This document shows, in pieces, positions 14,932 through 43,408 of a stretch of DNA of 64,000 bases. Within the stretch, counting starts at the first letter, position 1; each line of letters opens with the position of its first letter. The notes beneath the pieces were generated by a model, which saw only the letters and a list, made by a program, of their open reading frames with translations, had not been told where the DNA came from and searched no databases. Source of the stretch: Bacteroidales bacterium (GTDB taxonomy: Bacteria > Bacteroidota > Bacteroidia > Bacteroidales > VadinHA17); assembly GCA_017999895.1 (NCBI GenBank), contig JAGNKY010000012.1, positions 4,308 to 68,307 on the forward strand, written 5' to 3'. A program made the translations under genes and the position numbers.

Positions 14932-15040
14932 TCAATATCATTTAAAACACCGAAAAATACTGATTTTAAAGTTTCTTATTTTGATTTCATAATTAATTTT
15001 ATGAATGAACAGAAAAACATTATTAAGACATTTAATGAAA

Positions 15041-15129
15041 CGCCGATTTAGGCGGATCTTCAAGCGCGGATTATATCAAACTAATCGGCGTTAATCCGCG
15101 GTAATCAATCTGCGTCAATACGCGTGCTA
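15041..15129 (-). repeat. Diverged partial copy of the CGGAT/ATCCG repeat family (GCGGAT variant)
   Basis: The reverse complement starts tagcacgcgtattgacgcagattgattaccgcggatta. The long copy at 62231 starts tagcacgcggattacgcggattttacggattt, so the first 9 nt are identical. It contains a perfect 9-bp inverted repeat: cgcggatta (15065..15073) and taatccgcg (15092..15100). Confidence 0.5.
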
Positions 15130-15221
15130 TAAAAATAAAATATTGTTTTTATTAAAAATAAAGTGGCCCGATAAAAACCGAACCACCTTAATATATTTCA
15201 TGTTTTAAATTATGTAATACT

Positions 15222-16103: not shown

Positions 16104-16209
16104 TTTAACAGGTTTAATGATTAGTTAGCAATAGTATGAAATCCTATAAAATTATAAAGTTAATAAAAAATCGTCATAAAAATAATAATTCGTAACAATT
16201 TATTAACTC

Positions 16210-18651: not shown

Positions 18652-18899
18652 TTTTACTTCAGATATTATTATGATTAAAAGATTAAAATTAAATATTACC
18701 AGCGAATTCGTACAATTTAAATTGTAATTCTTTATTATTTTTATTAATCAATGATATTGTTAAAGAATGTTAAGTACTCAAAAGAAAAGAGAAACAGTTA
18801 TAGGAAATAATTTTAAAAATTATCTTTGAAAGAAAATTAATAATTAATGTAGAATAAAAACGATAAACTTTAAACGAAACAACCTAAAATAACTTTTAT

Positions 18900-19895: not shown

Positions 19896-20045
19896 TTTCT
19901 CAAAATATCCCGAAATGATTTCGCTTTTGGTTTTGCCTGGATAATGTTACCTAATTATAAAACAAATTATATAACTGTTTTAATGTTATTAATCGTTCGG
20001 GAAGTAAAAAGTTATTCAGCAAATAATAACTAAAAAGCATTTGTC

Positions 20046-21182: not shown

Positions 21183-21231
21183 AGAATTTAATTTTCAAAA
21201 TAATTTAACATTTAATTTTAAATTGAATAAA

Positions 21232-22421: not shown

Positions 22422-22688
22422 CTATTTCTTCTTTGTAAGTGAAATAACAATTCCACCGACAATAATTACCGCAGCAACTATAATAATAATTCTGCTTGCC
22501 GATCCTCCTTTATTACCATTACTTTCGGAAGTTTCGTCTTCAACCGCATAATAGTAAGTCGGCTTTATTATCGTATCCATATTAACAGAGTCTTTTTTCG
22601 GCTGCGGTTCTTGTTGTGCTCTTAAAAAAGATGCACTGCCAAATATAAGGATAGATACAAATACTAATTTCAATAATGTTCTTTTCAT
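22422..22688 (-). CDS. Small exported, C-terminally anchored hypothetical protein
   Basis: 88 aa. It has a signal peptide (LVFVSILIFGSASFLRAQ), an acidic/Ser-rich middle (EDETSESNGNKGGSAS), a C-terminal TM helix (IIIIVAAVIIVGGIVISL) and a KKK tail. Confidence 0.5.
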   Translation of the reverse strand: MKRTLLKLVFVSILIFGSASFLRAQQEPQPKKDSVNMDTIIKPTYYYAVEDETSESNGNKGGSASRIIIIVAAVIIVGGIVISLTKKK

Positions 22689-22734
22689 AATTATTTCCTT
22701 GTTTTTCCTATTTATTAAATTAGTTATACATATA

Positions 22735-24804
22735 TTATTTAATCCTGCTTACAATTTCATCATATTTTCGCGCCATATCAGGATTTGAGGTTCGGTAAGA
22801 ATCAGCCAGTGCCATAAGTGCCGGCTTATATACAGGATTAATTTCCAGACATTGTCTTAATATTTTTCTTGCCCGCTCTACGTCCTTTCTGCTAATTACT
22901 TCAGCCAGTTTCACGTAAGCCTCGAAGTATTTCCGATTAAAATTAATTAGCTTTTCAAAATATCCCTCAGCTTTATCATATTCACTTCTGGAAACTGAAA
23001 TAATTCCTGCATACATCAATGCCGGTTCAAAGAACGGATTAATTTTCAAGCATTCATTAAGCACTGAATCAGCTTTAAGTGAATCTCTCAATCTGTTAAG
23101 CGCAACTGCAAAATTATAAAAAATCATTTCATCACAATGATTTTCTAAAATCGCCTTCTGGAAAAGTTTTACTGCATCATCGCATCTATTCTCCTGTAAA
23201 GCCCTAAATGCATTATAATCAGCTTTCGATTGTCTTTCAATTACCGTACACACTGGAGCCTCTCCGGCATAAACTACTTTAAGAGCACCGGTAGGAGGCC
23301 ATAATCCTTCTTTTAACCTGAAAGGCAATATATATCTGTTAGTTGAAATATAATAATCCCAGTTGTAAGTACTTCTTTCTTCATTTCTTATATATATATT
23401 TTTAACAAACGGCTGATTACGGAAATACCATTCAGCCGAAAAATTCGAAGCAACTACTATGCTGTCTTTAATTCCTTTACTTTCAAGATATTCAGTCAGC
23501 CATTCCGAAGCTTCGCGTTGTCCTATAAAATAATAATCTATTTCATAATTTCCATTTGCTCCTTTAACACCGCCAACAAGCTGATTAAAATATAAATATG
23601 CATACCTGTAATTAGCGGCCAGAAATTTTACAACATGAAATGAAGGAACAAAGAGTAAGAACACACAAAACCATTTAAGGTAGTTTTTAATATTTAATTT
23701 GAATATTGTAGAAATACCGACAGCCGAAAGAATTACAATTCCCGGATACAAAAACATAAATTGCCTCCACCCGCTGTAAATATTTGGTCTGGAGAATATA
23801 GTATAGAAAAGGGGAAAAATAATACTGAAAACAAGAATGAAATATGCCAGAAAATTTCCTTTTCGAAAAATCTTTGGTGAAAAGATTATAAACAAAAGTA
23901 AACCGGCAGTAATAGCAACAGGTATTGTAATCAATATATATTTGGGCATGTAGTACCATGGCATATAATCGGTCCACTCCACTCTGCCTTCAAATATTTC
24001 CCTGAAAGTGAGTGGAAATCTGCTCATAAAAAGATGGGCTTTGACAGGATTGATCACAGGGTTCTGTAATCCATAAGGCCATAAAACAACACTTAGAAAC
24101 CATCCTGCAGCTGAAATTATTGTAACAAGAAAAAATTTTCCAGCTAATGCATTGATGCTTTCCCCTTTACCATTAATATATTTTATAAGTTCATCTATGA
24201 AAAAGAAAAAGAAAAGATAACAAATAAGAATCATACCACTTGCTCTTATACTCATACAAAAAGCTATACTAAGAGCAAGCAATACACCACTTACAACTGG
24301 AATTTTCTTTTCAGACGATAAAAACTTTATGATAAAAAATACGCCTGATACATAGCCGAGTGCAAAGGGGATATCCTTAAGGTTATTCTGAGAATGGCCA
24401 AGAAATGTGGAAGATATTCCAAACAGCAGAATTACTATTATCCCTGCTTCATACCCTGAAAGCTTAACCGCAAAAAATACAGTTATAATAATTGTGAGCC
24501 ACCCGGCCATTGTGGCCATAATATGACGGAAACCGTAAATATCTTCCACACCTAACAGCTTAATAAGAAAAGTTGTAATATTGTCGTATGACTGTCCGTA
24601 ATATTTAAGGTGAGTGCCGGGAGTATGGAGACATGATCTGTCCTGACCATGTGTTACAAAATAGTTATAAACCGATACCGACTGGTTGTAATGAAGCACT
24701 TCGTCACAACTGACGCCTGCCTGTTTGCTTCCATAGAGCATAGCAACAAGAAGGGCAAAAGAAAGAACCGATAGAACAAGCTTATACCGTATTGTACTCA
24801 TCAT
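22735..24804 (-). CDS. GT-C fold membrane glycosyltransferase (ArnT/PMT-like, GT39/83-type) with C-terminal TPR repeats
   Basis: 689 aa. About 500 aa form a polytopic membrane region typical of polyprenyl-phosphate-sugar-dependent transferases. They are followed by TPR-like helical repeats (YNAFRALQENRCDDAVKLFQKAI..., YDKAEGYFEKLINFNRKYFEAYVKLAEV...). Its start overlaps the GT2 stop by 4 bp (ATGA). Confidence 0.65.
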   Translation of the reverse strand: MMSTIRYKLVLSVLSFALLVAMLYGSKQAGVSCDEVLHYNQSVSVYNYFVTHGQDRSCLHTPGTHLKYYGQSYDNITTFLIKLLGVEDIYGFRHIMATMAGWLTIIITVFFAVKLSGYEAGIIVILLFGISSTFLGHSQNNLKDIPFALGYVSGVFFIIKFLSSEKKIPVVSGVLLALSIAFCMSIRASGMILICYLFFFFFIDELIKYINGKGESINALAGKFFLVTIISAAGWFLSVVLWPYGLQNPVINPVKAHLFMSRFPLTFREIFEGRVEWTDYMPWYYMPKYILITIPVAITAGLLLFIIFSPKIFRKGNFLAYFILVFSIIFPLFYTIFSRPNIYSGWRQFMFLYPGIVILSAVGISTIFKLNIKNYLKWFCVFLLFVPSFHVVKFLAANYRYAYLYFNQLVGGVKGANGNYEIDYYFIGQREASEWLTEYLESKGIKDSIVVASNFSAEWYFRNQPFVKNIYIRNEERSTYNWDYYISTNRYILPFRLKEGLWPPTGALKVVYAGEAPVCTVIERQSKADYNAFRALQENRCDDAVKLFQKAILENHCDEMIFYNFAVALNRLRDSLKADSVLNECLKINPFFEPALMYAGIISVSRSEYDKAEGYFEKLINFNRKYFEAYVKLAEVISRKDVERARKILRQCLEINPVYKPALMALADSYRTSNPDMARKYDEIVSRIK

Positions 24805-25730
24805 GCATCGAATGTACCTCCATAAAAATTCTTTACGAAATACAGCGGCCTGTTTTGTGATTCCTTATAGCTTCGGTAAACGTATTCTCCAATTATTCCC
24901 AGGAAAATAAGTTGAACCGAACCGAGGAAATATATACTAAGAAGTGTTGATGACCATCCCGGCACAGCCAGATGTGCAGCTTGTGCCACGAGTATATATA
25001 TACCAGCAACCATAAAGACCACTACGCCTATTATTCCAAGAAAATAGCATACCTGTAGTGGAAATTTCGAGAATGAGAAAATTGCATCACCTGCCAGTAT
25101 TAAAAGTTTTTTCATACTCATTTTAGACTTGCCGGTAAATCGTTCATCCCTAACGTAATCTACAAATCCCTGTTTGAAACCAACATAAGAACGTATTCCC
25201 GGCAAATAACGCATATTTTCTCCGAATGAAATTATAGCATTTACTGCGCACCGCCTCATCATTGAAAAATTACCAGCATTCGCAATATTATTTAATCCGG
25301 CAATTTTCTTAAAAAGAAAATGAAATATGGACATAAAAATCTTTCTCTGCAGATTTTCTTTTCTGGCTTTTTTCCGGCCATTTATTACATCATATCCTTC
25401 CGAATAGATTTTTTTGTACATCTCGGGCAGCATTTCAGGGGGATCTTGAAGGTCGCCGTCCATCATTGCCACAATGTCACCGGATGCATGTTCGAGGCCA
25501 GCAGTATAGGCTATTTGATGGCCAAAGTTTCTCGATAAAGAAAGGATTTTAATTCGAGGGTTTTTATTCCGGAACGAAAGAAGCAAATCAAGACTTTTGT
25601 CGGAACTACCGTCGTCAACGAATATTATCTCATAATTATCTATAAATGATTCAATTGCAGAGACTGTTCTTCTTATGAGCTCTTCCAGAACATCTTCCTC
25701 ATTATATATTGGAATAACTACAGATAACAT
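24801..25730 (-). CDS. GT2 polyprenyl-phosphate glycosyltransferase (ArnC/GtrB/DPM1-like)
   Basis: 309 aa. Evidence: VVIPIYNEE, FVDDGSSD, MDGDLQDPP (DxD region) and two C-terminal TM helices. Confidence 0.85.
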   Translation of the reverse strand: MLSVVIPIYNEEDVLEELIRRTVSAIESFIDNYEIIFVDDGSSDKSLDLLLSFRNKNPRIKILSLSRNFGHQIAYTAGLEHASGDIVAMMDGDLQDPPEMLPEMYKKIYSEGYDVINGRKKARKENLQRKIFMSIFHFLFKKIAGLNNIANAGNFSMMRRCAVNAIISFGENMRYLPGIRSYVGFKQGFVDYVRDERFTGKSKMSMKKLLILAGDAIFSFSKFPLQVCYFLGIIGVVVFMVAGIYILVAQAAHLAVPGWSSTLLSIYFLGSVQLIFLGIIGEYVYRSYKESQNRPLYFVKNFYGGTFDA

Positions 25731-25747
25731 ACAGCAAAATAAAATTA

Positions 25748-25839
25748 GTCTCTATGCACTTTGTGCCTTTTCTATTATGCTATTTGATATTTAATTAGTT
25801 AAGATAAGCGACACGAAGTTGACACGTAGTGGCATAGAG
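25748..25839. repeat. Intergenic inverted repeat (9-bp arms, 74-nt spacer)
   Basis: tctctatgc (25748..25756) and gcatagaga (25831..25839) are exact reverse complements. On the minus strand the distal arm is followed by a T-rich run. The element lies between the ThuA-like gene and the GT2 gene. Confidence 0.6.
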
Positions 25840-25848
25840 AAGTGATAA

Positions 25849-27057
25849 TTATTTAATTCCCAGTCGCTCAAGCGCAAAACTAACTTCATCTTTTAATTCA
25901 GGCACTGATTGCAGATTTCTAATAGCAGGAATACAATAATCGGTTCCCATCCAGCTGAGCTCACGCAAAACAAGTTTCTTTGCCTCAACTGTAGCCGAAC
26001 TGTTATTAAGAACTCCGGTCATCAATTTCTCTATTTCAAGGAGTTTTTCCTTATCGCCTGCCGCCCGTCTGATATATTCCTGAAGACCAGTATAGCATTT
26101 TGTGCTTTTCCCTATATCATAATTCACAAGGCCGGCAATATTCTCCTCAAGAGAAAGATATTTATAATCTTTTCTAATAGAAACGCCTGCAGCACTTGGG
26201 AAATCGGGAGGGATACTCTGTGTTACATTCCCTGATGCAGCCCATTCAGTGCCCCGTTGGAAAGTAGTAATAAAACCTGCACATTTCAAGGCAGGGCTTT
26301 CTTCTCCTTCCGGATACCCGAGTGTAGTATGAAACACTCTTCCTTTTCCGTAATTAATCGTCATCATAACAGGTTCGTGCCTTCCCGTTCCATTTCCGGA
26401 AGTGTCACAGAAAGCTGTGGCCAGAACCTCGAGATTCTTCGCCGGTCCCCTCATTCTTGCATAAAGAAGATCGCTGCCATGCATCCATCTTACTGGTAAA
26501 CCTTTCATTACAGGATGCTCCATATTACGTGTTCTTACCTCAAATTCTCTGGTTTTGCCGTACCATCCAGCCTGGCCTGGTGTAGAATCGATAACCATCC
26601 GGCCATCCTTGAAATAAATGTATGGCCCGTTTATTTCCGATCTCCCTCCCCATCCGGTCAAACCGCATATTTCTTCATACTCTTTCCAGCCGGGAAACGC
26701 TGATGAGGCTGAATGATACACAACTACTCCACCACCGTCAGAGACGTAATTAACAAAAGCCTTTTTTGTATCTTCTGACCATGAATCACCGGAATAATTA
26801 AGTACCACTACATTATATTTGCCAAAAGAAGGCTTAAAACTCTTCATATCACCTCCTTTTTCCGGTGATATTGCTATATCGACTCTGAAAAGTCCGGTTT
26901 GTTCAAGAATCTGTTTAATGACCGGGGTGCTAACTTTCCAGTTGGTCGTATTTTGTCCGGTTACAATTAGAGCTCTATATTGCATACTTTTTTGACATGC
27001 TATGGATATTAACATTACCATGCATGCCATTATTGCGAAAATTTTTGTTTTTTTCAT
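25849..27057 (-). CDS. ThuA-domain protein with C-terminal HEAT-like repeats, lipoprotein
   Basis: The track ORF starts at 27090. The ATG at 27057 gives MKKTKIFAIMACMVMLISIAC, a lipoprotein signal. ThuA-like features: ALIVTGQN, YVSDGGGVVVYHSA, HPVMKGLP, YGKGRVFHTTLGY. The tail is HEAT-like (VEAKKLVLRELSWMGTDYCIPAIRNLQSVPELKDEVSFALERL). Confidence 0.75.
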   Translation of the reverse strand: MKKTKIFAIMACMVMLISIACQKSMQYRALIVTGQNTTNWKVSTPVIKQILEQTGLFRVDIAISPEKGGDMKSFKPSFGKYNVVVLNYSGDSWSEDTKKAFVNYVSDGGGVVVYHSASSAFPGWKEYEEICGLTGWGGRSEINGPYIYFKDGRMVIDSTPGQAGWYGKTREFEVRTRNMEHPVMKGLPVRWMHGSDLLYARMRGPAKNLEVLATAFCDTSGNGTGRHEPVMMTINYGKGRVFHTTLGYPEGEESPALKCAGFITTFQRGTEWAASGNVTQSIPPDFPSAAGVSIRKDYKYLSLEENIAGLVNYDIGKSTKCYTGLQEYIRRAAGDKEKLLEIEKLMTGVLNNSSATVEAKKLVLRELSWMGTDYCIPAIRNLQSVPELKDEVSFALERLGIK

Positions 27058-27068
27058 TGATGTGTGTT

Positions 27069-28382
27069 TTAAACTGTCGGTAATGTCCATGGTTTTCTAA
27101 ATGGTCGGCTCATTAAACGACTTGCCGCCTGATTGTTAATTATTTCTTCTTTTTCTGGGTCCCATTTTATTTTTTGTCCGGTTGTCATTGCAATTTCTCC
27201 GAGCAAAGCTACAGATATTGCCCGGTAAGCAGGTTCAATCGGGCAAATAGTCTCTTTGCGTGAGCGAACGCAATCTATGAAATTCTGGTAATGATTAGTA
27301 CTTTTATAAAGATGTAACTCATCATCTTTTATCTTTTCTTCAAGTATTTTCGGGTTAGAAGCACTAATTTTGTTTCCGCGGTCTACATGTATCCATCCGA
27401 GGTCGCCATACCAGCATGTACCCATGCCCTTTGGAAGCCGTGAAGCATTGGCCACTCTCATTTCCATTCCATCAGCATATTTGCATAATATATCATATTC
27501 AACAGGAGCGTTGTATATTCCCTCAACCGGGTAAACTCCTTTTCCCTCTATTTCAACCGGGCCTGTGTGCTCCAGACCTGCTCCCCAGTTTGCAATATCA
27601 ACGTGATGTCCGGCCCAGTCGGTGAGTTGTCCACCGGAATAATCGAGTATCCATCTCCAATTCCAGTGACATACGCCGCGATATGGTACCCTCAGAGCAG
27701 GGCCGAGCCACATGTCCCAGTTTAGTTCTTTCGGAACTTCCTGTACTGGTGGAGTTCCTATCCCTCTTTCACCGTCGGGAAGCCCCACTTCAATATATTT
27801 TATCTTTCCTATTCTTCCATTTGCAACCAGTTCAGCCCCACGATGGAAATTCTCCTGCGACCTCTGCCAGCTTCCAGTCTGCCAGATAATTCCATTTTTC
27901 TTAACTGCACTAACAATAACCTTTCCTTCGTTTATTGTACGGCATATTGGTTTTTCGCCATATACATCCCATTTTTTCATGGCAGCTTCTGTATAGATAA
28001 CACCATGCCAATGATCGGGAAGAGCAATGAGTACTGCGTCAAGATTTTCCTTATCAAAGAACTCCCTGAAATCGCCATAAATCCTGCAGTCCCTGCTTCT
28101 ATTAACTTTATCAACCGTTTCCTTTGCTGCTGCAAGTCGTGAAGCATCAACATCACATAGAGCTACAAAACGCGTCTGATATTTTAGTCTCATAAAGTCT
28201 CTCATATCGCTCATGCCCTGTGAACCGGTTCCGATAACACCCATAACTATACGGTCGGAAGGAGGTATTTGGCCTCCACGACCTAAAGATGAAGCCGGCA
28301 TAATGTAAGGAATAACAAAAGTTCCGGCTATAGCAGAAGCAGATTTTTTTAAAAAATCCCTTCTTGATGTTTTCGTTTTCAT
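27069..28382 (-). CDS. Gfo/Idh/MocA-family oxidoreductase, Tat signal
   Basis: 437 aa. MKTKTSRRDFLKKSASAIAG is a Tat motif. Rossmann start MGVIGTGSQG; the family EKP motif appears as YGEKPICR. Confidence 0.85.
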   Translation of the reverse strand: MKTKTSRRDFLKKSASAIAGTFVIPYIMPASSLGRGGQIPPSDRIVMGVIGTGSQGMSDMRDFMRLKYQTRFVALCDVDASRLAAAKETVDKVNRSRDCRIYGDFREFFDKENLDAVLIALPDHWHGVIYTEAAMKKWDVYGEKPICRTINEGKVIVSAVKKNGIIWQTGSWQRSQENFHRGAELVANGRIGKIKYIEVGLPDGERGIGTPPVQEVPKELNWDMWLGPALRVPYRGVCHWNWRWILDYSGGQLTDWAGHHVDIANWGAGLEHTGPVEIEGKGVYPVEGIYNAPVEYDILCKYADGMEMRVANASRLPKGMGTCWYGDLGWIHVDRGNKISASNPKILEEKIKDDELHLYKSTNHYQNFIDCVRSRKETICPIEPAYRAISVALLGEIAMTTGQKIKWDPEKEEIINNQAASRLMSRPFRKPWTLPTV

Positions 28383-28415
28383 TTTATACTTTTTTAATTA
28401 TCAACAGATCAAATT

Positions 28416-29753
28416 TCATATTTGAACAGGCAATCCGGGAATAGGGACTTCAAATTTCATATCAACCGGCCCGAATTCTATTTTTGAGGGGCCCAGGTTC
28501 ATGTCTGATTTAAGTATTTCATCCCATGTGATCATTCTGCCGGTATATGCAGCAGTTCTTCCCATTATTGCAGTCAGTGTAGAGATTGCAGTTTGTTCCG
28601 CTTCGTTAACGTAATTACCAGTACGTATAGCCCATACCAGATGCATGTGTTCCTGTACATAGGCAGGTATTTTCAATGAATTTGTTGGATTATTATTTTC
28701 ATCTCTGGGATATTCAAATTTCCATTTAATATTTCCATCCAGATCCCAGATAATATTCTGACAGTTAGTATATCCTTCGGTTCCAACGACTATCTCACCG
28801 GTGCCGTTTGCACAACCGTCTATTTGTCTGCACATGCTATGGGAACTCAGACCGTTTCCGTAATTAAAATCAATACTGAAAAAATCATACTGGTCGCCTG
28901 TAACACGTCGGTGTCTTCCTCCGTAACCAATTGCACTTTCAGGATGTTTTCCCGTGAACCAGTTTACCACATCAATATTATGTACATGGGTATCAAGTAT
29001 ATGATCGCCTGAAAGCCAGCAAAAATTATTCCAGTTACGTATCATATATTCCATGTCGTTCCATCCAGGCTCTCTTAGTCGGAACCATACATGATCCTGG
29101 TTCCAGTAAGCTTTTGCGGATGTAATACGTCCGATAGCACCGGCGGCCACCTGTTTGTATGTTTCGATATAATCTTCCTGATGGCGTCTTTGTGTACCCG
29201 TAACCACATTGATACCTATTGCTTCGGCTTTTTTCGCTGTCGTAAGTATTGACCGTATTCCTGTAGAATCCACTGCAACAGGTTTTTCCATGAAGACATG
29301 TTTGGTTCTGGTCACTGCTTCAAGGAAATGTTCGGGTCGGAATTTAGGAGGTGTAGCAAGTAGTACGACGTCAATCTCGTCGATAGCCATGAGTTTCTTA
29401 TATGCATCGAATCCCACGAAACAATTTTCGGCGGGAATAGGCAATCCGAAAGAAGCAAAGCGTTCTCTGCATGCATCAATTTTGTCCTGAAATACATCGG
29501 CCAGTGCAATAATTTCAAGGTCTGGACCTGCACTGATAAAATTGATTGCAGCGCCTGTACCGCGGCCTCCAGCCCCTACAAGGCCTGCTCTGAGTTTTTT
29601 GCCCGGAGGTGCTCCATTTAGTATAGGGGGCAGTCCAGCGGGTTCTGCTATCTTTTTTCTTCCGCATCCGGTCATTATTGCGCCTGCACCAGCCAGGCCA
29701 ATACTTGCCGCAGCAGCTTTTTTGATGAATTTTCTTCTATCAAAATTTTTCAT
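28416..29753 (-). CDS. Gfo/Idh/MocA-family oxidoreductase, Tat signal (possibly lipidated)
   Basis: 445 aa. MKNFDRRKFIKKAAAASIGLAGAGAIMTGC combines an RR motif with a Cys after the h-region. Rossmann start AGLVGAGGRG and EKP motif FMEKPVAV. Confidence 0.85.
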   Translation of the reverse strand: MKNFDRRKFIKKAAAASIGLAGAGAIMTGCGRKKIAEPAGLPPILNGAPPGKKLRAGLVGAGGRGTGAAINFISAGPDLEIIALADVFQDKIDACRERFASFGLPIPAENCFVGFDAYKKLMAIDEIDVVLLATPPKFRPEHFLEAVTRTKHVFMEKPVAVDSTGIRSILTTAKKAEAIGINVVTGTQRRHQEDYIETYKQVAAGAIGRITSAKAYWNQDHVWFRLREPGWNDMEYMIRNWNNFCWLSGDHILDTHVHNIDVVNWFTGKHPESAIGYGGRHRRVTGDQYDFFSIDFNYGNGLSSHSMCRQIDGCANGTGEIVVGTEGYTNCQNIIWDLDGNIKWKFEYPRDENNNPTNSLKIPAYVQEHMHLVWAIRTGNYVNEAEQTAISTLTAIMGRTAAYTGRMITWDEILKSDMNLGPSKIEFGPVDMKFEVPIPGLPVQI

Positions 29754-29759
29754 AAGTTT

Positions 29760-31295
29760 CTATTTCTTTGATAACACCAAGCTATCGGGTTCACATACCA
29801 CTCTAAATCCCACATCGATACAATCGGAATACCACCAGATGCTCTTAGGCATTTGCGGGTCAGTCATTAACCATATATCGGTTTTTGTAAAGTCACGCGC
29901 AGCGCTTCTCACATCCTTTGCGTCACTCTTGAACGAACCTCCTCTTATCACTCTCTCTTTTCCCTCCAAAGGGCCCCGTGGATTTATTGAAACAGTATCA
30001 TTTTTATAAGCATCGGCAGAATAATAGTCAGAGCAGAACTCTGCAACGTTTCCCGACATATTTTTTATTCCAAACGGATTGGGCTTGACTGCCGAAGGCT
30101 CAGCCGTTCTGTAATTGCTATTTTCCTTATATATAACGTATGAAGCAATTACGGCAGTATCAGGCTTGAATATCTTTTTCACAAATCCTTCTGAAGAAAA
30201 CTTTTTTGGATTGCCTTCGAAGAAATATGGAGTTGAAGAGCCGCCTCTACATGCATATTCCCATTCTGCTTCTGTTGGCAGACGGTAATATTTACCTGTT
30301 TTTTGCGAAAGCCATTTGCAGTAAACATTCGCGGCATACCAGGTCATGGTTATTGCCGGACGTGAGCCTTTGCCCCAGCCCTGGTCGGGAGCTCCCCATG
30401 GAGGGGTTGGCCCGGTGACAGCATCAACTTTTTTTGTCGTGACTATCTGTCCTTCGGTTCTCCCCTGAGAAGAAGTGGCCTGGAAAAAGGCAAGATATTC
30501 ATCCCATGTCACCTCTACTTCACCTATCCAGAAAGGAGATACTGTAACTTCCCTTACCGGGCCTTCATCATCTTCGCGCAGAGGTTCATCGTCAGGGCTT
30601 CCCATATTATATTTACCGCCGGGAACCGCTATCATATTAAACGAAACTTCTGTTCCGGGGATATGCTCGGTGAAATTTTCAAATTTTTCTACTTTGGCCG
30701 GCTCAGTGTAAACAATCGCAGTTTCAGTTTTAATGACTCCAAAGGTTGTGTCTTTCGCATGTTTAATGTTTTTATCAAAATGGCCTACATCAATATGACA
30801 GTTAATGCACTGCAAAGATTCCTTGTTTAAGGTATAAAACAGATGTGCATTGCCTCCGTCTTCGGATAATGTTACAGGAAACAGGTTAGTATGACATTCA
30901 AGACATGATTCTTCATAAACAATTTTCTTTGCATTTTCTGGAAGTTTTTTTGCCTCCCAGTTAAAATCGGCACTATCCTTAAACCAGTATCCATAAATAT
31001 CCTTTATTCCATGCTTAACCTTGGTTAAAAGATATCCCTTGCCTTTTGGGGCAAGATGACATTCAATACAATGTGTCTTTACGCCCGAACTATTGTTGTA
31101 ATGAGTCGAGAGTTTCCACGATTGTTCAGCATGGGGGTGAACATGGCATGACATACAATATTCATCGGTCGAAGTATAAGAAATTGCCTTATCTCCAAGT
31201 ATTATTAATATTATGCAAGCAATAACTCCTGCAAAAAAAATCCAGACAAATGACTTCTTTTTTTTTGATTGTCTGGTTATTTTGATTTTATTCAT
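29760..31295 (-). CDS. Fusion protein: membrane-anchored NapC/NirT-type tetrahaem cytochrome c + FGE-sulfatase (SUMF1)-fold domain
   Basis: 511 aa. It has an N-terminal TM helix (FVWIFFAGVIACIILIILG). Four CxxCH motifs occur at residues 47, 76, 131 and 163 (CMSCH, CIECH, CLECH, CINCH) with NapC/NirT-like spacing. The C-terminal ~290 aa carry FGE-fold hallmarks (MIAVPGGKYNMGS, YRLPTEAEWEYACRGG, NMSGNVAEFCSDYY, RVIRGGSF). Confidence 0.8.
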   Translation of the reverse strand: MNKIKITRQSKKKKSFVWIFFAGVIACIILIILGDKAISYTSTDEYCMSCHVHPHAEQSWKLSTHYNNSSGVKTHCIECHLAPKGKGYLLTKVKHGIKDIYGYWFKDSADFNWEAKKLPENAKKIVYEESCLECHTNLFPVTLSEDGGNAHLFYTLNKESLQCINCHIDVGHFDKNIKHAKDTTFGVIKTETAIVYTEPAKVEKFENFTEHIPGTEVSFNMIAVPGGKYNMGSPDDEPLREDDEGPVREVTVSPFWIGEVEVTWDEYLAFFQATSSQGRTEGQIVTTKKVDAVTGPTPPWGAPDQGWGKGSRPAITMTWYAANVYCKWLSQKTGKYYRLPTEAEWEYACRGGSSTPYFFEGNPKKFSSEGFVKKIFKPDTAVIASYVIYKENSNYRTAEPSAVKPNPFGIKNMSGNVAEFCSDYYSADAYKNDTVSINPRGPLEGKERVIRGGSFKSDAKDVRSAARDFTKTDIWLMTDPQMPKSIWWYSDCIDVGFRVVCEPDSLVLSKK

Positions 31296-31349
31296 TATAT
31301 ACTATTCCAGTCGTTTTTATAAAATTGAGCTAATTTTTATCTGGTATTT

Positions 31350-32288
31350 TCAATGAACTATTTCTTTTTTAAAATAATCTATCGTCATTTTGAGTCCTTC
31401 CTGTAGAGTAACTTCAGGGCTCCAGTTAAGGACAGCTTTCGCTAGTGATATATCGGGTTGTCGTTGTCGGGGATCATCTTCCGGAAGAGGACAGAATTTT
31501 ATCTTTGACTTTGAACCTGTCATTTTTATGATTATCTGTGCCAGGTCAATTATTTTTATTTCAGCAGGGTTTCCTATATTTACCGGTCCCGTAAAAGATT
31601 CGGGTGATTCCATAGTTAAAAGCAATCCTCTTATCAAATCATCAAAATATTGAAAACTTCTTGTCTGGGAACCATCACCAAAAATTGTAATTTCATTCCC
31701 TTTCAGGGCCTGAACGATAAAGTTTGAAATCACTCTTCCGTCGTCGGCCCTCATCTTTGGCCCATAAGTATTGAATATTCTGACAATTTTGATATTAACT
31801 TTTTCCTGTCGGTGGTAGTTCATAAAGATAGTTTCTGCACATCTTTTCGCCTCATTGTAGCATGAGCGGGCTCCAAGCATGTTTACATAACCTCTGTATC
31901 CTTCATGCTGTGGATGAATCTGAGGATCACCATAGATTTCGCTTGTTGATGCCTGTAGAATCTTTGCACCTGTTTTTATCGCAAGTTCAAGAGTATTTAT
32001 TGCACCAAGTACTATTGTTTTAATAGTCTTTATACCGTCTTTTTGATAAAATATGGGTGAAGCAGGACAGGCAAGATTATATATTTCATCGCAACTGATA
32101 TGTATTTTTTCTGTTACATCCTGCTCAATAACTCTGAAATATCTGTTATTTCTTAGATGTCGGATATTTTTTTCCCTCCCGCTAAAAAAATTATCGAGAC
32201 ATATAACGTAGTGCCCCGATTCAAGAAGTTTTTCACAAAGGTGTGACCCAATAAAACCGGCCCCGCCTGTGACCAGAATTTTTTTCAT
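31350..32288 (-). CDS. UDP-glucuronate decarboxylase (UDP-xylose synthase), SDR family
   Basis: 312 aa. Evidence: [77 protein letters not shown]. This closely matches the UXS pattern as I remember it. Confidence 0.8.
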
Positions 32289-32432
32289 TAAATAAACTTA
32301 TTAAAAAGAATTCCCACAAATATAATTTTTTATCATTATTATCCCATAGATAATTACAATTTTACACAAGTTTTGGAGAATAATATTAAAGGAAATAGTG
32401 AACTGCCTGAAACAAGTATATAAATGCTATTT

Positions 32433-33836
32433 TTACTGTAATGATGATATTGTTTTCCAGACATCATCCGGATTCTTCAAGGCGTTATCGGGCATCTTCC
32501 CGTTCTTTCCGAATACCAGAAGTTTATCATATTTTTCGATAGTCACCTTCGATTCATCAATTTTGCCGCTCTTATCTTTAACAGCATTTATGTTAAGTCC
32601 GAGATGCTTTGCCATAAAATCGTACATTGCAATCCGTTTCGAATAGCCATAATCGTGCTTTTCATTTGCAAGGTGCACATTCTCGACATTATCCTGCTTT
32701 CCATATAAGGAATATATTTTCCGGAGATATGGAAACTCTATTTCAGGCACATGTTTTGTCCAGTCGTCGCCGTCGGAAATAACCAGCATCGGGCGGGGTG
32801 ATGCCATCGCAGCAATTTCGGCATTATAGGTTAAAAGTTCCGTGCATGATTGTAGCGGCATTCCACTTTCGCACGGACAGCCTCCATAATAGTATGAAGA
32901 AACCATAACAACAGGCACACTTACTTTTATCCTGTCGTCGAGGGCAGTTGCAAGCATTGCCTGTGTTGCTCCTCCCGAGGCGCCTGTGATCCCAATTCTT
33001 GTGCCATCCACAAAAGGCAAAGTAGTAAAATAATCTATCGCCCGTATAGAATTAAGAGTTTGCATTGTATGTGCCAGCCCTGTTCTGTGTAGTTCGCTCG
33101 CAAACTGTAGTCTCGATTCACCCCATGCAAACATGTCGTAACTAAATACTATGGCACCCATCCTTGCAAGAGTGGCGCAACGGTATTGCATATCGGGCCG
33201 ATAACGGCCATACAGATTTGTATCGGGGTTTGAAAAATGTCCGTAAGGGCATAAAATAAGGGGAAACGGACCTTTACCTTTTGAAGGTTTATAAACAGAG
33301 CCGCACAGATAAACCCCCGGAATTGTTTCAATTGCAATGTTTTCCACGCTATAGCCTTCATATTTTCTTGCAGGTGTGACAATGGGATTGAAAGCCGTTT
33401 TCCGTGGAAAAGGATTTAGTTTCAACTGTGTGAGAAAACATTCACGCAGCTGAGCTTTTCTCGATTCCCAGATTTCGGGCGTAGTACAATAGGCAAGAAG
33501 TTGTTCAAGATGTTTCCTACCTTCTTCCACCGGACGCTGATAATAATTAAATTTGCTTATCTGGTAAGTATTCTCACCGGTTTTTTCATATACCAGATCA
33601 AGTGGGTAAAGAATATTAGTAAGGGTCGGCTCAATATCTACCCGGTAACGCCATGTAGGATAGTTTACAAACATATCTTTTACAAGGCTTTCACTATACT
33701 GTAGTTTTATATGGTATCGGCTTTCGATATCAATTAAAACTTCTTTCAAAGGTTTCTTATAAACCTCTTCCGGCAGTTGTGATCTGACAAAAGTGGCCGA
33801 AAACACTAATAAAAAGAGAAGAAATAGTTTTTTCAT
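32433..33836 (-). CDS. Secreted alpha/beta-hydrolase (acetyl-xylan-esterase / dienelactone-hydrolase-like)
   Basis: 467 aa with a signal peptide. A nucleophile-elbow-like motif RIGITGASGGAT (GxSxG) is present. Family-level call only. Confidence 0.55.
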   Translation of the reverse strand: MKKLFLLFLLVFSATFVRSQLPEEVYKKPLKEVLIDIESRYHIKLQYSESLVKDMFVNYPTWRYRVDIEPTLTNILYPLDLVYEKTGENTYQISKFNYYQRPVEEGRKHLEQLLAYCTTPEIWESRKAQLRECFLTQLKLNPFPRKTAFNPIVTPARKYEGYSVENIAIETIPGVYLCGSVYKPSKGKGPFPLILCPYGHFSNPDTNLYGRYRPDMQYRCATLARMGAIVFSYDMFAWGESRLQFASELHRTGLAHTMQTLNSIRAIDYFTTLPFVDGTRIGITGASGGATQAMLATALDDRIKVSVPVVMVSSYYYGGCPCESGMPLQSCTELLTYNAEIAAMASPRPMLVISDGDDWTKHVPEIEFPYLRKIYSLYGKQDNVENVHLANEKHDYGYSKRIAMYDFMAKHLGLNINAVKDKSGKIDESKVTIEKYDKLLVFGKNGKMPDNALKNPDDVWKTISSLQ

Positions 33837-36488: not shown

Positions 36489-38354
36489 TTAGTTCCAGGA
36501 AGGCCAGCCTTCGTTCTGTTCAAGTTTGCTCATACGCAATATTTCATTATATGGAATTGGGTTATATGGTGATGGGAAAGTACGTTCGTCAGCCACATAA
36601 CTATAGTCGTAAGTAAATGAAAGGTCAGCATTTTGGGTTATTGTAACTCCATGTACCGGCTTATTGATTACAGATTGCCAATTAGCATCTGTTGTCCACC
36701 TGCGAAGGTCATAAAATCTCACTCCTTCGAAGCACATTGTTATTCTTCTTTCATTTTTTATCAATTCGTCAAAGGCATCTGCGCCTTCAGAGGCAACCTG
36801 AGCAAGATATGCATCGGGGGCGCCTGGTACAGCAGGGCAAAGCCCATTAGCATTATCATAAGTCTTCCTTGCACGCAGATATTGAATAGCTGTACGTGCC
36901 GACATTCCATATCGTGATGCATCGAGAGGACCGACTACTTTATTTGCAGCCTCGGCGAAAGTAAGAAGCATTTGCTCCCAGCGTATAAGATATCTGTAAT
37001 GAGGCTGACGGTTTATTGAAGCATCCGACCAGTTTAGACCTGCAAAAATGAATTTCTTGATATGGTAATTTGTAAGGCTGTTTGTCGGCTTAACGCCGTA
37101 GGCGTCCTTACCCGGGCCGTTTGGCCCGCTGTTCCAGTTTTCGAAAATGTACATAATGTTTGAAGGAGAAACATTGTTATTTCTGTAAACTGGCCGATTA
37201 TTATAAAAAATAACACTATAGAATCTTGGATCACGGTTCACATAAGGATTTGCCGGGTTATACCCGCTTGCAGGGTCAGTTATTGGTCGTCCGTTAGCCA
37301 TTGGAAAAGCATCTACAAGTTCCTGTGTGGCACCTATCAGACCGTTACCCTGAAAACCTCCGGGGTAAAGCATGCGTTCAATATCATCATTTGAAGAATT
37401 ATAACGGGTTATTGCAATTGCCTCCGGGGCGTTCGGATTTGTCCATTGAACGGAATTCAAAGGTCTGAAGCTGGAAGAGGAAGAAGTCTGGTCAACCGTA
37501 AGTTTAAAGTTAACTGCTTTATATGAATTTACTGCAGCGCTATCGTATCTTGTAATGTCGTTCGAAGGGTTAAACCTCGGACTTGCCCATGTAAGATAAA
37601 CTATACCTTTGAGTGCATACATTGATATTCCGTCAAAACGACCCCAATATTTGCCTCCAGCATAAACCCTGTCAGCGGCATTAGGAACAAGAAAATCCCT
37701 GTGTGCAATCGGCAGATACTTTATTGCCGAGTCGCAGTCACTAATAATCTGCTGAACACATTCGTCATAAGTATTACGGGGAACATTAATTATATCGGTT
37801 GCACCATAAACTTCAGTAATAATTGGGAAACCAAGCATCTCTCCCGATTGAAAGCCTTTACCTCCAAATTTCTGCAAGAGATCCCATTCAAACCATGCTC
37901 GAAGTGCGAATGCCTCACCCTGAAGCCTGTTTCTTACAAGTGTGTTCCAATAAATATTCAAAATAAATTTAGTGTTATAACCTTTCCTGTCTTTAAGGAA
38001 AAGATTGCAATTCCTAATAGCTCTATAATCCCTGTCCCAGTATGTAGCAAACGGATCTTGTGAATTTGTCATTGTATTGTTTGCATATCTTCTCATAACG
38101 TGAGTACTGTTTGTAATTACGCCGTCGTCTGTTATAGCATCCATGTAAATGTCTTCATTGCCTGTGTAGTTCCTTACGTTTGAGTTTACCTGGTCGTAGC
38201 AGTAACCTATAAGACCCTGAACAAGGCTCTGGTAATCCCACAACATTTCAGTGTCGTAGTTGCCCTGGGGATAAGGTTCGAGGTAATTCACGCATGAACC
38301 AAGCAAGGCAGCGGTTACCATCATCAATATAGTATTCTTTATCTTTATCTTCAT
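36489..38354 (-). CDS. susD: SusD/RagB-family nutrient-binding lipoprotein
   Basis: 621 aa. The lipoprotein signal is AALLGSC. Its size, TPR-like core, the C-terminal R(F)YDLRRW motif (VRFYDLRRW) and its position after SusC support the call. Confidence 0.85.
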   Translation of the reverse strand: MKIKIKNTILMMVTAALLGSCVNYLEPYPQGNYDTEMLWDYQSLVQGLIGYCYDQVNSNVRNYTGNEDIYMDAITDDGVITNSTHVMRRYANNTMTNSQDPFATYWDRDYRAIRNCNLFLKDRKGYNTKFILNIYWNTLVRNRLQGEAFALRAWFEWDLLQKFGGKGFQSGEMLGFPIITEVYGATDIINVPRNTYDECVQQIISDCDSAIKYLPIAHRDFLVPNAADRVYAGGKYWGRFDGISMYALKGIVYLTWASPRFNPSNDITRYDSAAVNSYKAVNFKLTVDQTSSSSSFRPLNSVQWTNPNAPEAIAITRYNSSNDDIERMLYPGGFQGNGLIGATQELVDAFPMANGRPITDPASGYNPANPYVNRDPRFYSVIFYNNRPVYRNNNVSPSNIMYIFENWNSGPNGPGKDAYGVKPTNSLTNYHIKKFIFAGLNWSDASINRQPHYRYLIRWEQMLLTFAEAANKVVGPLDASRYGMSARTAIQYLRARKTYDNANGLCPAVPGAPDAYLAQVASEGADAFDELIKNERRITMCFEGVRFYDLRRWTTDANWQSVINKPVHGVTITQNADLSFTYDYSYVADERTFPSPYNPIPYNEILRMSKLEQNEGWPSWN

Positions 38355-38367
38355 AGTTTTTAGGTAT

Positions 38368-41300
38368 TTAGAAATTAAACTTCACACCTCCGGAGATTGT
38401 CCTGAACAGGGGATAATTTGTAACACCTGAGTTAATAGATTCCGGATCGACATCTTTCACTTTAGAAATTGTAAGGAGGTTGGCGCCTCTCAGATAAATA
38501 CGTAAACCACGTCCCCCCATAAACGTTAATGATTTTGGTGGCACAATATATGCAAGCTCCACATTTTGAATCTTGAAGTAACCTCCCTTAACCAGCCAGA
38601 AATCTGATGTAATAAAATTGTTATTAACTTTGTAATAAGTAAGTCGTGGATATTTACCCCCTATATTATCTTTTACAAAGTTTGAATAATTATTATCACC
38701 CCATCCGTTCCAGTAGTAAACATTTGTAAGGGCCAGATCGTAGAAAGCTCTGCCTGCTCCGGTAATCCAAAATTCAATATTTCCAAATCTTACCGTTGCA
38801 TCTATACCATAATACATTCTGGGTGATGAATGTCCAACCATTGACTGGTCGTTATCATCCACAAAACCGTCATTATTCAGATCTGCATATTTAAGATCGC
38901 CGGCTTTTAATTTAGCATCAAATAATTGCGGAATAAGTTTTGTTTCGGCATCGGTTGTAAATTTACCCAGATATGTCAAGCCAAAGATTGCATCCGATGG
39001 TTTACCTGTTCTTTTCTGGTATTCATATCTGTAATTCGGTTCATCATATTTAAGCCTTTTCTCCATTCCGGTTGTTATATTACCACCGATAGTAAATGTT
39101 ACTTTTCCTATTTTTTGTGTGAAATTAAGATCGGTTAGCAAATAATTACCCTGGGTTTTTGTGTAATTATACCACGGTCTCGCGCCCTGAAGTCCTACCA
39201 CATAAGGGAGCACATTTGAAACCTGAACTATAACTCCATCGTCAATATAATGTTGGTAAGTCATTTCCAGAGAGAGGCTCTTATTAAATAATAGTGCATC
39301 GAAGCCTGCATTGAATTCTTTAAAGACTTCCCATCCGAGGTCGGGATTTCCTATTCTTTGCGGACTGGTTCTTGGTACATTTGCATCGGTTGTGCTTCCA
39401 AACCATTGATTGCTTGAGTATGCACCGAAAGCCGAACCTGATGTATTTACACTTAACCTGTCAATATAATAGAAAGGAGATATGAAAGTTTCTACTCCAA
39501 GCTGACCATACTGTGTTCTAAGTTTCAGAAAGTCAATAAAGTTAATGTTCGACATAAAATTTTCCTCAGAAATGACCCAGCTTAATCCGGCTGATGGAAA
39601 TAGGCGATATCTGTTTTCTTTAGCAAACCGGTCGCTTCCTGCATAGGTAAGAACCAGTTCGGCAGAGTATCTATCTTTCAAAGAATACATCGAATGCCAG
39701 ATGATATTAGCCTGCCGTTCAGGTTCCTCGACACCGTTTTTAAATGTCTTCCCACCGTAGAATACAAGGTTTGACTCAATCAGATGATCTCCAAATCTGT
39801 TGTTATATTCCAGTTTTTCATAAAAACCATATCTCTGGTAATAATAGTCCATGAGCTTCGACTCGCTTGTTTGATTTGCCGAAGTATGTGAAGATGATTT
39901 TGAAAGCAATATTGTATCTTTTCCTGTATAAGGGCTTATGGAAGGTGACACAAGATATGCATCATAGTCTTCGACTTGACCTGACCGCACAACATTGTAA
40001 ATATTAAATCCGAAGAATGTTTTTGATTTCAAGCCCGGAACAAACTTTCCGATGTCAAAATCGAGTGAGATACTCGAAGCGCCAAGACGTCCGACGTCCT
40101 TATAATAGCCCTGGCTTACCAGGTTTCCAATTGGGTTATTGGTATAGTTTGAAGAAATGCCATACCAAGGTATACCTGTTTCTTCGTCATAATGAGCATA
40201 AACTGGAAAAGCAACAGGAGGAACAGTGATAATATCACTTAGAACACTGGGCATTTCAAGGAGGCTCAATACCGGGTTAGTGTTTGAGTCTTCCGATGTG
40301 AAATCAGGGTCGTATCCATAATTAGGTGAACGCCTGATTGAAATATTGCCGTAAAAACTGAGGCTTGTGGAAAATAAGTCATTAATTTTCACATCAACAT
40401 TTTGTCGGGTACTTATCAAGTTATAATCCGCTTTAGCGCCAATTTTATATATATCTCCCTCATTGTTGTAACCTATAAAAGAATAATACTGCACTATATC
40501 GTTTCCTCCAGAGGCCGATATATTTGCCCGCATGAAAGGTGTGTTATTTTTTAACATCATCTCTCGAAAGTTAACGCTTGGGTATTTTTTGTCGTAAGGA
40601 TCATTTTTTGCATAAGCGGAAATAGCTTCTTCGGTATAATTAGGAGTAAGACCGTCATTGATTCGGGCCTGGTTATTAAGTCTTGCATAATCCGCGCCTC
40701 CAACCCAGCCTGGCATACGGTCGACAGTATTTAAACCTCTTTCTATATTTACATCGAGAATTCTCTCATTGGCATATCCACGTTTAGTTGTGATGAAGAG
40801 AAATCCGTTCTTGGCAGCAACTGGGCCGAACATTGCAGAGGCAAGTGTGCCTTTATTAACGGTAATAGACTCAATTTCCGATGCATTAAGGGCCACTTCT
40901 GAAAGGTCGGTATAAATTCCGTCAACAATTGCTATGGGTATGTTTGAAAATTTACTTGTTGCACCAAACGAACCAAGTTTTTCCTGAGCATTTGGTCCAG
41001 GCCAACCATAAAGTTCTCTTACATCCATTCCTGAAGTAAGCCCTGTTAATGAGGCTCTTATGTCGTTTGAAGGATATTTTTCAAGACTTGAAGCCTGGAT
41101 TATAGTTTCCGGCCCCGTTATCTGTCGTTTATAGAGATTGGTAAAAGGAAGAGCTACCATATCGGCACTCGTCATAAAAAGTTTTGACCTGACAAGTGTT
41201 ACTGTATTATTCTGCAACAGGTTTGTAACAATCGAAACATTTTTTTCAAATGCAGGAGAAGTAATTGTAACTACATTTTCAGGATGAGCCCTGAATGTAA

Positions 41301-41526: not shown

Positions 41527-41549
41527 AGCCGTAAGTATTAATAATTATT

Positions 41550-43388: not shown

Positions 43389-43408
43389 ATTTATTAATCA
43401 GTTTAAAG

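Follow-up and report, generated by a model that had tools for sequence, protein, structure and literature searches.

A Bacteroidales tetrahaem cytochrome with a repurposed formylglycine-generating-enzyme fold: a candidate flavin-carrying partner of a Tat-exported dehydrogenase

The window analysed here, to which all coordinates refer, is a stretch of 64,000 nt from a Bacteroidales bacterium (VadinHA17; assembly GCA_017999895.1, contig JAGNKY010000012.1, forward-strand positions 4,308-68,307). Our target is a gene on the minus strand that encodes a membrane-anchored tetrahaem cytochrome of the NapC/NirT type fused to a domain with the fold of formylglycine-generating enzymes (FGEs). It is followed by the gene for GFO_A, a Gfo/Idh/MocA oxidoreductase with a twin-arginine translocation (Tat) signal. 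The two genes have the following features.

29760..31295, minus strand: whole target gene, membrane-anchored tetrahaem cytochrome plus FGE-like domain, 511 aa (open reading frame (ORF); Pfam PF03264 and PF03781; 120 full-length homologues)
31170..31262, minus strand: N-terminal transmembrane anchor, residues ~12-42 (hydropathy scan; helix 3-41 in the full-length model)
30777..31265, minus strand: NapC/NirT tetrahaem domain, residues 11-173 (Pfam Cytochrom_NNT, 2.5e-26; CXXCH invariant in A1, our alignment of ten fused NapC/NirT and FGE-like homologues)
31143-31157, 31056-31070, 30891-30905 and 30795-30809, minus strand: the four CXXCH motifs, with C47, C76, C131 and C163 as first residues
30999..31022, minus strand: K92 to D99, candidate quinol/quinone site (aligned with NrfH Lys82 and Asp89; invariant in A1)
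29790..30638, minus strand: FGE-sulfatase-fold domain, residues 220-502 (Pfam; AlphaFold2 (AF2) domain model; Foldseek)
30405..30425, minus strand: DAVTGPT, D291-T297, candidate ApbE flavinylation motif with Thr297 as predicted site of flavin mononucleotide (FMN) (translation; family table)
29895..29942, minus strand: GGSFKSDAKDVRSAAR, degenerate counterpart of the Cys-x4-Cys copper loop of FGEs, without cysteine (HMMER alignments to FGEs)
29823..29873, minus strand: WLMTDPQMPKSIWWYSD, W475-D491, family signature inserted relative to FGEs (54-sequence family alignment)
28416..29753, minus strand: GFO_A, Tat-signal (DRRKFIK) Gfo/Idh/MocA oxidoreductase, 445 aa (Pfam; begins 6 nt downstream of the cytochrome gene)

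The haem domain has the appearance of a working quinone/quinol module of the membrane. It has the N-terminal helix, the four CXXCH motifs and the Lys/Asp pair of NapC/NirT proteins, and it scores 92.9 bits against PF03264 (gathering cut-off 24.1). All four haem motifs are invariant among the ten fused members of A1. The family profile matches NrfH (2j7a_C) at 7.5e-9, and in the alignment of the N-terminal part with D. vulgaris NrfH K92 corresponds to K82 and D99 to D89. In CymA the residue equivalent to NrfH Lys82, Lys91, is essential to the interaction with menaquinol (PMC2762525). The first haem motif of the target (31143-31157, minus strand) is CMSCHVH, whose His53 does not vary within the family, whereas NrfH has CTSCHIM. 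The Met of this CxxCHxM motif is the proximal haem ligand in NrfH; since the target has CxxCHxH instead, the ligation of haem 1 may differ. By the topology of NapC/NirT proteins, everything after the N-terminal anchor of the target lies on the periplasmic side.

The second part of the protein matches the Pfam FGE-sulfatase family (PF03781) at residues 220-468 with 1.3e-44. A preliminary description of this DNA had listed three FGE/SUMF1 hallmark strings, and all are found in the translation: YRLPTEAEWEYACRGG (337-352), NMSGNVAEFCSDYY (412-425) and RVIRGGSF (448-455). It had also pointed to a stretch following GGS that is free of cysteine, and indeed GGSFKSDAKDVRSAARD at 452-468 contains none. 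The cysteines of the FGE-like part are confined to C326, C349, C421, C492 and C501, with none in the 452-467 loop, and its single His, H211, lies in the linker. HMMER alignments to the FGEs of T. curvata (6s07), S. coelicolor (2q17) and human (2aft) end at GGSF|KS, where the solved enzymes read GGSFLC (T. curvata) and GGSYM(C/S) (human). As the profile and single-sequence searches of the PDB stop before the Cys loop, positions beyond GGSF were counted to the shared AAR and GFR motifs. By the count from GGS to AAR the loop of the target falls three residues short of the human loop, and C336 falls on S457 and C341 on about V462. A cysteine occurs in the degenerate loop of none of the ten A1 homologues. 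Across the 54 sequences of the family alignment (the target and 53 loci; a column counts as conserved at >=90%) no Cys or His column is conserved, which excludes a catalytic Cys pair at a shifted position and argues against a copper or non-haem iron site in the FGE-like domain. Finally, W299 of human FGE (GNAWEW), the active-site Trp, corresponds to A418 in the target (GNVAEF), and the homologues carry A, R or K at this position.

No sulfatase (PF00884) was found with Pfam among the window's real ORFs of >=150 aa, from which four shadow ORFs opposite annotated genes had been omitted; the statement that the 64 kb hold no sulfatase gene is thus borne out. A radical SAM/SPASM gene (60278-61660, plus strand, 460 aa) was considered as an anaerobic sulfatase-maturating enzyme and rejected, as it is not an equivalog of that type. 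Its best partial NCBIfam matches are NirJ2 and mycofactocin-type maturases, and no equivalog cut-off is reached.

Could the domain still be a genuine FGE, with a displaced catalytic pair and matured or powered by the cytochrome? The strong Pfam match would fit this, as would the facts that the best PDB sequence matches are FGEs and that the sources label the family FGE or SUMF1. Of the four traits by which an FGE may be recognised, the fold is present, and the other three, Cys-x4-Cys, the active-site Trp and co-occurrence with a sulfatase, are absent. Cysteines are missing in and near the loop and are not conserved in the family, W299 is replaced, and the conserved neighbour encodes a dehydrogenase, not a sulfatase. 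At the sequence level a genuine FGE is refuted, and we give this explanation practically no credence. The preliminary description had held a role in sulfatase maturation to be improbable, and we conclude that the FGE-like domain has none.

The target was searched against a database of 5.8 billion proteins and the best 120 matches were considered. All of them are two-domain proteins of ~510 aa with 67-78% identity, mostly from Bacteroidales metagenome bins, and are labelled by their sources as 'SUMF1/EgtB/PvdO family nonheme iron enzyme' or 'formylglycine-generating enzyme'. The attachment of an FGE fold to a NapC/NirT cytochrome had been called unusual; since all the best 120 matches share it, this view does not hold. 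The architecture is widespread among Bacteroidales metagenomes, and the proteins are part of a large family that has yet to be characterised.

For the locus scan one genome per GTDB species was taken, which gave 80 loci, and their ORFs were compared with the proteins of the window. The full NapC/NirT fusion was present in 13 loci (L004-L016) from Bacteroidia, KSB1, Acidobacteriota and one unclassified bacterium. About 40 further loci have the FGE-like domain only, with 35-44% identity and with the C-terminal signature. These loci come from Sphingobacteriia, Flavobacteriia, Cytophagia, Chitinophagia and Saprospiria within the Bacteroidota, and from Planctomycetota, Verrucomicrobiota, Acidobacteriota and Gemmatimonadota. 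The standalone homologues are secreted proteins of 280-370 aa with Sec signal peptides. In Verrucomicrobiota (L023, L024, L025, L027, L033) one or two mono- or dihaem planctomycete cytochrome c domains (PSCyt1) precede the FGE-like domain, and such fusions were also seen in Bryobacteraceae (L038, L046). There are hence at least two kinds of cytochrome fusion, so that fusion took place more than once, and the fact that two unrelated kinds of c-type cytochrome are joined to the same domain argues for a function in electron transfer. A third type of N-terminal extension (L018:4684-6855 and P0236) is ~420 aa long, gives a faint signal for FG-GAP repeats and lacks haem motifs. Two further combinations, P0157 (FGE plus FAD-oxidase_C) and P0137 (FtsH_ext plus FGE), look like assembly chimeras and were set aside.

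The family is marked by a C-terminal signature, W..DPQxPKSxWW, that is inserted relative to FGEs. W475, D479, P480, Q481, P483, S485 and W487 are each kept in 49-54 of the 54 sequences and thus in at least 90%. Within A1 the conservation at the C-terminus extends to T470, W475 and D479-P-Q-x-P-K-S-x-W-W-Y-S-D491.

A homologue of GFO_A directly adjoins the FGE-like gene (same strand, <=300 nt) in 35 of the 47 evaluable loci. The pair occurs in Bacteroidota, Planctomycetota, Verrucomicrobiota, Acidobacteriota and Gemmatimonadota, and was also seen in separate gene calls with precomputed Pfam assignments. In a family alignment of 42 GFO_A members RRxF is present in 39, and the Rossmann motif G.G.RG and the EKP motif are kept. 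This conservation of the Tat, Rossmann and EKP motifs suggests that GFO_A is an active NAD(P) enzyme, exported in the folded state together with its cofactor. Very probably, the FGE-like domain serves this Tat-exported dehydrogenase as its conserved redox partner.

Clustering of the ORFs revealed a recurrent third neighbour gene, which encodes the FAD:protein FMN transferase ApbE (PF02424, 9e-71; NCBIfam, 7e-58). ApbE-like genes were found in 20 of ~56 family loci, usually in the collinear order FGE-like gene, GFO_A, ApbE. With chance expectation set generously at 1%, 20 such loci in 56 have a binomial probability of ~1e-26, and compared with other FGE-like loci, none of 24 having apbE, the difference is significant (Fisher p = 2e-4). 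Three Sphingobacteriia or Flavobacterium genomes, with independent gene calls and precomputed Pfam assignments, have the FGE-like gene, GFO_A and ApbE followed by aldose 1-epimerase.

ApbE attaches FMN to the final residue of the motif D-x-x-[S/T]-G-A-[S/T] (PMC12052999, PMC8238504). At residues 291-300 of the target the family has the motif D-[AG]-[IV]-[ST]-x-[PA]-[TS]-x-[PQ]-[YWF]. Thr or Ser at position 7 is present in all intact members; the sole deviant (L016) is frameshifted. The Bacteroidales homologues read DAISGAT or DGISGAT, which are exact ApbE motifs, or DAVSGPT, and the target itself reads DAVTGPT. Distant members mostly have DAVTRPT, and many of these have an apbE gene of their own. 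A loose form of the pattern matches 48 of 55 family ORFs, whereas the background rate is 0.03 per 316 aa. The FGE-like domain is extracytosolic, as in the target it follows the anchor and the c-type haems and as the standalone homologues have Sec signals. Glycosylation was considered as another explanation of the motif and rejected, because D291-A292 does not fit the Bacteroidetes O-glycosylation motif D-[ST]-x.

GFO_A was likewise considered as the target of ApbE and rejected. None of its 42 members match the pattern, and its string DVVLLATPP is the ordinary Rossmann-fold strand that all Gfo enzymes have. Two Flavobacteriaceae loci (L022:7932-10574 and L054:7881-10493) contain the FGE-like gene, a YceI-like (polyisoprenoid-binding) gene and ApbE, and no GFO_A. 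In this variant module a putative flavoprotein may be tied to a lipid or quinone ligand. Because the motif is absent from GFO_A and two apbE loci lack GFO_A, the FGE-like protein is what these loci share and probably what ApbE acts on. We hold with moderate confidence that the target family represents a new kind of ApbE-flavinylated electron carrier. The preliminary description had suggested that the domain might serve in docking or provide a new redox site. This suggestion is supported, and the ApbE-type motif and the apbE neighbours go beyond it in pointing to a covalent FMN as that redox site.

Where would this flavin be located? The only structure model used was an AF2 model of the domain (130 sequences; mean predicted local distance difference test (pLDDT) 75.9, predicted TM score (pTM) 0.80); a full-length model from a 37-sequence alignment was discarded, its mean pLDDT being 49. 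In the domain model pLDDT falls below 50 only at residues 289-307 and 477-492 and at model residues 1-3, which belong to the linker. Foldseek returned PvdO (5hha) first (TMt 0.77) and FGE structures next (E ~1e-16). With the Cys-less PvdO as the best structural match of the model, the idea of a repurposed FGE fold stands. The substrate groove of FGEs has Pro182 at one end and Cys336/Cys341 at the other (PMC10375594). In the HMMER alignment T297 corresponds to human A176, W300 to W179 and P303 to P182, which places T297 six residues before P303, and the W475-D491 signature comes directly after the former Cys loop. By this alignment both family-specific conserved segments map to opposite ends of the old FGE substrate groove. 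Being conserved and yet modelled with low confidence, the motif loop and the signature might form a ligand site or a subunit interface.

The similarity to PvdO raises the question whether the FGE-like domain could itself be a catalyst that acts in its groove on a small molecule or peptide of the periplasm, oxidising or otherwise modifying it, with the haems as electron sink and with GFO_A as a separate enzyme in the same pathway. The best structural match (TMt 0.77), a strong partial NCBIfam match to PvdO (1.4e-29) and the fact that, among the family-specific parts, conservation is highest in the segments lining the groove are in line with this. The score for the PvdO equivalog NF051459 is, however, 103 against a cut-off of 500, no pyoverdine (pvd) genes are nearby, and there is no conserved Cys, His or Met for redox chemistry. 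The apbE linkage would stay unexplained unless a flavin were invoked, which would merge this explanation with the one we prefer. We regard such a catalyst as very improbable.

We favour, at a probability of roughly 55%, the reading that the FGE-like domain acts as electron-transfer subunit for a periplasmic dehydrogenase with bound NAD(P), carrying FMN on Thr297 and connected by the four haems to menaquinone. GFO_A would oxidise a hydroxyl group of a periplasmic sugar or glycoside, whereby its tightly bound NAD(P)+ would be reduced to NAD(P)H. The hydride would be passed to the FMN, which ApbE would have bound by a phosphoester to Thr297 on the flexible loop of the remodelled FGE groove. The FMN would hand single electrons to the fused NapC/NirT domain with its four c-type haems, so that a two-electron step is converted into one-electron steps, and the haems would reduce menaquinone in the membrane at the K92/D99 site. 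Of this scheme we infer the formation of the complex, the covalent FMN on Thr297, the direction of electron flow and the substrate. As a precedent, the NapC/NirT protein CymA feeds ApbE-flavinylated periplasmic reductases (PMC8238504).

Several points weigh against this proposal. The motif of the target is TGPT, with Pro in place of the canonical Ala, and the [ST]-R-P-[TS] of most non-Bacteroidales members is not among the documented sites of ApbE. In the domain model, confidence is low for the motif loop. The apbE gene is present neither in the 64-kb window nor in any Bacteroidales locus, so that the proposal depends on a housekeeping ApbE from elsewhere in the genome; Bacteroidales generally own an ApbE serving Nqr and Rnf. 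An adjacent GFO_A is missing from 9 of the 47 loci, and in Bacteroidia genes for GT2 and GT-C/TPR (tetratricopeptide repeat) glycosyltransferases follow the pair more constantly than catabolic genes do. The FGE fold is not known to bind flavins, and we know of no exact precedent for a hydride transfer from enzyme-bound NAD(P)H to an FMN tethered on another subunit.

Two other explanations have to be considered here. First, the FGE-like domain could be an adaptor without cofactor that merely docks the Tat-exported dehydrogenase or dehydrogenases on the cytochrome, the electrons taking another route. The conserved pairing of the FGE-like gene with GFO_A would be expected for an adaptor as well. 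The FGE fold has non-catalytic roles, PorK and GldK being among the PDB matches, and FGE folds of the GldK/PorK type are purely structural. In P0125, P0173 and Phycisphaerae members part of the N-terminal half of the fold is deleted, and no apbE lies near the Bacteroidales genes. An adaptor leaves unexplained, however, both the linkage to apbE in 20 loci and the invariant Thr/Ser within the ApbE-like motif, and it provides no converter of two-electron into one-electron steps between NAD(P)H and the haems. We consider it unlikely.

Second, the electrons could flow in the reverse direction: menaquinol would be oxidised by the NapC/NirT domain, electrons would pass via the haems and the FMN to the bound NAD(P)+, and GFO_A, as a respiratory reductase, would reduce a periplasmic keto-sugar or another carbonyl. 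NapC/NirT proteins such as NrfH and CymA are classically quinol dehydrogenases, and where flavinylated periplasmic enzymes that receive electrons from CymA have been characterised, they are reductases (PMC8238504). Against this direction speaks that the path from menaquinol to NAD(P)+ is uphill. The redox potentials are about -74 mV for menaquinol and about -320 mV for NAD(P)+. In the aerobic phyla, moreover, the neighbouring genes are catabolic, encoding aldose 1-epimerase, xylose-isomerase-like TIM proteins and sugar or nucleoside-type transporters. The reverse direction seems to us quite improbable. Flow toward menaquinone is favoured because the step from NAD(P)H to menaquinone is downhill and because of these catabolic neighbours in aerobes.

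For the family as a whole, the electron-carrier reading would mean an unrecognised class of ApbE substrates, in which an FMN tethered in the remodelled FGE groove serves as the 'second substrate', re-oxidises the tightly bound NAD(P)H of Tat-exported Gfo/Idh/MocA enzymes and feeds c-type cytochromes, and thus a general respiratory coupling of periplasmic sugar or glycoside oxidation in Bacteroidota, Planctomycetota, Verrucomicrobiota and Acidobacteriota. We see even chances for this joint claim.

Bacteroidota and the Planctomycetota-Verrucomicrobiota-Chlamydiota phyla have Tat-exported Gfo/Idh/MocA dehydrogenases in great abundance, and these enzymes underlie the recently described oxidative breakdown of glycosides. 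For one of them, BT2158, a second sugar, not identified, has been proposed as acceptor for the bound NAD(P)H (PMC8121099). If our reading is true, a dedicated flavin-carrying and cytochrome-wired partner would explain for one large family how NAD(P)H is re-oxidised in a compartment that lacks free nicotinamide cofactors, and a new protein fold would join the list of ApbE targets. Thousands of annotations as 'formylglycine-generating enzyme' and 'non-haem iron enzyme' would have to be corrected, and Bacteroidales of gut and sediment would have a route for the electrons of periplasmic sugar oxidation into menaquinone-dependent respiration.

FGE, sulfatase and Gfo are not mentioned in the flavinylation surveys of Meheust (2021) and Huang (2024), nor in a 2025 review of ApbE. 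Our literature search, outside of which subscription journals lie, so that a prior description is possible, found no paper joining ApbE or flavinylation with FGE terms or Gfo. It also found none linking NirT, formylglycine, MocA and ThuA, none on Tat with MocA and cytochrome c, and none on ApbE with Pedobacter, Echinicola or 3-ketoglycoside.

The genes surrounding the pair in the window are the following.

27069..28382, minus strand: GFO_B, second Tat-signal Gfo/Idh/MocA oxidoreductase (Pfam; PDB matches 8tdf/8tdh)
25849..27090, minus strand: ThuA-like lipoprotein, extended C-terminally by ~120 aa; its gene overlaps the end of GFO_B (Pfam ThuA; PDB 4e5v, 8e-96)
24801-25730, minus strand: ArnC/PgfS-like GT2 polyprenyl-phosphate glycosyltransferase
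22735-24804, minus strand: probable GT-C glycosyltransferase, 689 aa, with ~11 transmembrane segments and TPR repeats
22422-22688, minus strand: secreted, C-terminally anchored protein, 88 aa
31350-32288, minus strand: UXS/ArnA-like NAD epimerase/decarboxylase, upstream of the target gene

GFO_B partly resembles glycoside 3-dehydrogenases of the BT2158 type. Together with the ThuA-like lipoprotein (25849-28382, minus strand) it looks like a pair of the ThuB/ThuA type inside the cytochrome operon, and the two genes join the pair of cytochrome and GFO_A in the closest relatives only. The GT2 and GT-C genes follow this pair in Bacteroidia more constantly than GFO_B and ThuA do (L085, L088, L001-L003, L005, L008), which hints at a link to periplasmic glycosylation or a polyprenyl-phosphate-sugar pathway (compare DprE1). 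A scan of positions 22500-32600 for promoters and terminators, which was not built for Bacteroidota promoters, gave the same counts as shuffled sequence and left the operon limits undefined.

In other genomes transporters are found near the module. Next to the PSCyt1 fusions of Verrucomicrobiota (Prosthecobacter; L023, L025) lie sugar transporters of the major facilitator superfamily, and transporters of the nucleoside:H+ symporter family adjoin the module in one Gemmatales and one Sphingobacterium locus (L019, L028).

Within the window the region 6912-22317 contains many Gfo/Idh/MocA oxidoreductases and xylose-isomerase-like TIM-barrel proteins. Several carry Tat signals, for example the product of gene 21163-22317 (SRRKFLG and a proline-rich linker). 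A GH2 glycosidase, a CstA transporter and a GDSL esterase are encoded in the same region, and its gene content is consistent with oxidative (keto-sugar) catabolism of glycosides. On the other side of the target gene, at 36489-46648 (minus strand), two tandem SusC/SusD pairs with BT_3987-like, BNR_4 and esterase genes make up a polysaccharide utilisation locus. It is followed on the opposite strand by a complete ilv/leu operon for the biosynthesis of branched-chain amino acids (47627-59196, plus strand).

Compared with the aerobic FGEs (human SUMF1, T. curvata, S. coelicolor), the target shares the fold, with Foldseek TM values of ~0.6 to 6xtp, 6s07, 2q17 and 1z70, and the core motifs RLPTEAEWEYA and N..G..GN..E..D. 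It differs in that the copper pair Cys336/Cys341 is lost, the loop is shortened by three residues and Trp299 is replaced by Ala418. In addition, the target family has the W..DPQxPKSxWW insertion and an ApbE-like motif before the equivalent of Pro182, and the domain is fused to haems and shows no association with sulfatases.

PvdO (5hha), which NCBIfam names periplasmic dihydropyoverdine dehydrogenase, is likewise a Cys-less periplasmic FGE fold, and one with an assigned redox role. The identity to the target is only 28%, the equivalog score stays at 103 bits where 500 is the cut-off, and the target has no pyoverdine context. Of PvdO itself we know no cytochrome fusion, GFO partner or ApbE-type motif. 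GldK/PorK, a ring lipoprotein of the type IX secretion system, is also set apart: the target scores 117 bits with TIGR03525 (cut-off 350) in a match limited to residues 313-473, and it has neither a lipobox nor gld/por neighbours.

With NrfH, CymA and NapC the target has in common the N-terminal anchor, the four CXXCH motifs and the Lys/Asp pair of the quinone site. In contrast to these proteins it carries a fused partner domain of 300 aa and CxxCHxH at haem 1, and the proposed electron flow is toward the quinone.

Among the ApbE-flavinylated carriers NqrC/NqrB, RnfG/RnfD, NosR, PplA, UrdA/FrdA, DUF2271 and DUF3570 were compared. Like these, the target family is extracytosolic, has a 7-residue motif that resembles D-x-x-[ST]-G-A-[ST] and ends in an invariant Thr/Ser, clusters with apbE in many genomes outside the Bacteroidales and is associated with cytochromes and membrane quinone chemistry. 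It differs from them in its FGE-sulfatase carrier fold and in the Arg-Pro at motif positions 5-6 of most members, and its flavinylation is a prediction.

On the side of the dehydrogenase, glucose-fructose oxidoreductase (GFOR) and the glycoside 3-dehydrogenases of the BT2158 type are, like GFO_A, Tat-exported Gfo-type enzymes with tightly bound NAD(P) (PMC8121099). Their cofactor is thought to be regenerated by reduction of a second sugar, whereas here a dedicated, FGE-like and cytochrome-linked partner is encoded. The glucoside 3-dehydrogenase LacABC likewise oxidises sugars in the periplasm with the help of a dedicated cytochrome subunit (PMC9007349), but is FAD-based and unrelated in sequence to the target system. 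The closest working analogues of the target are thus of two types, the extracytosolic flavin carriers (CymA-fed UrdA/FccA, NqrC and RnfG) on the one hand and LacABC on the other.

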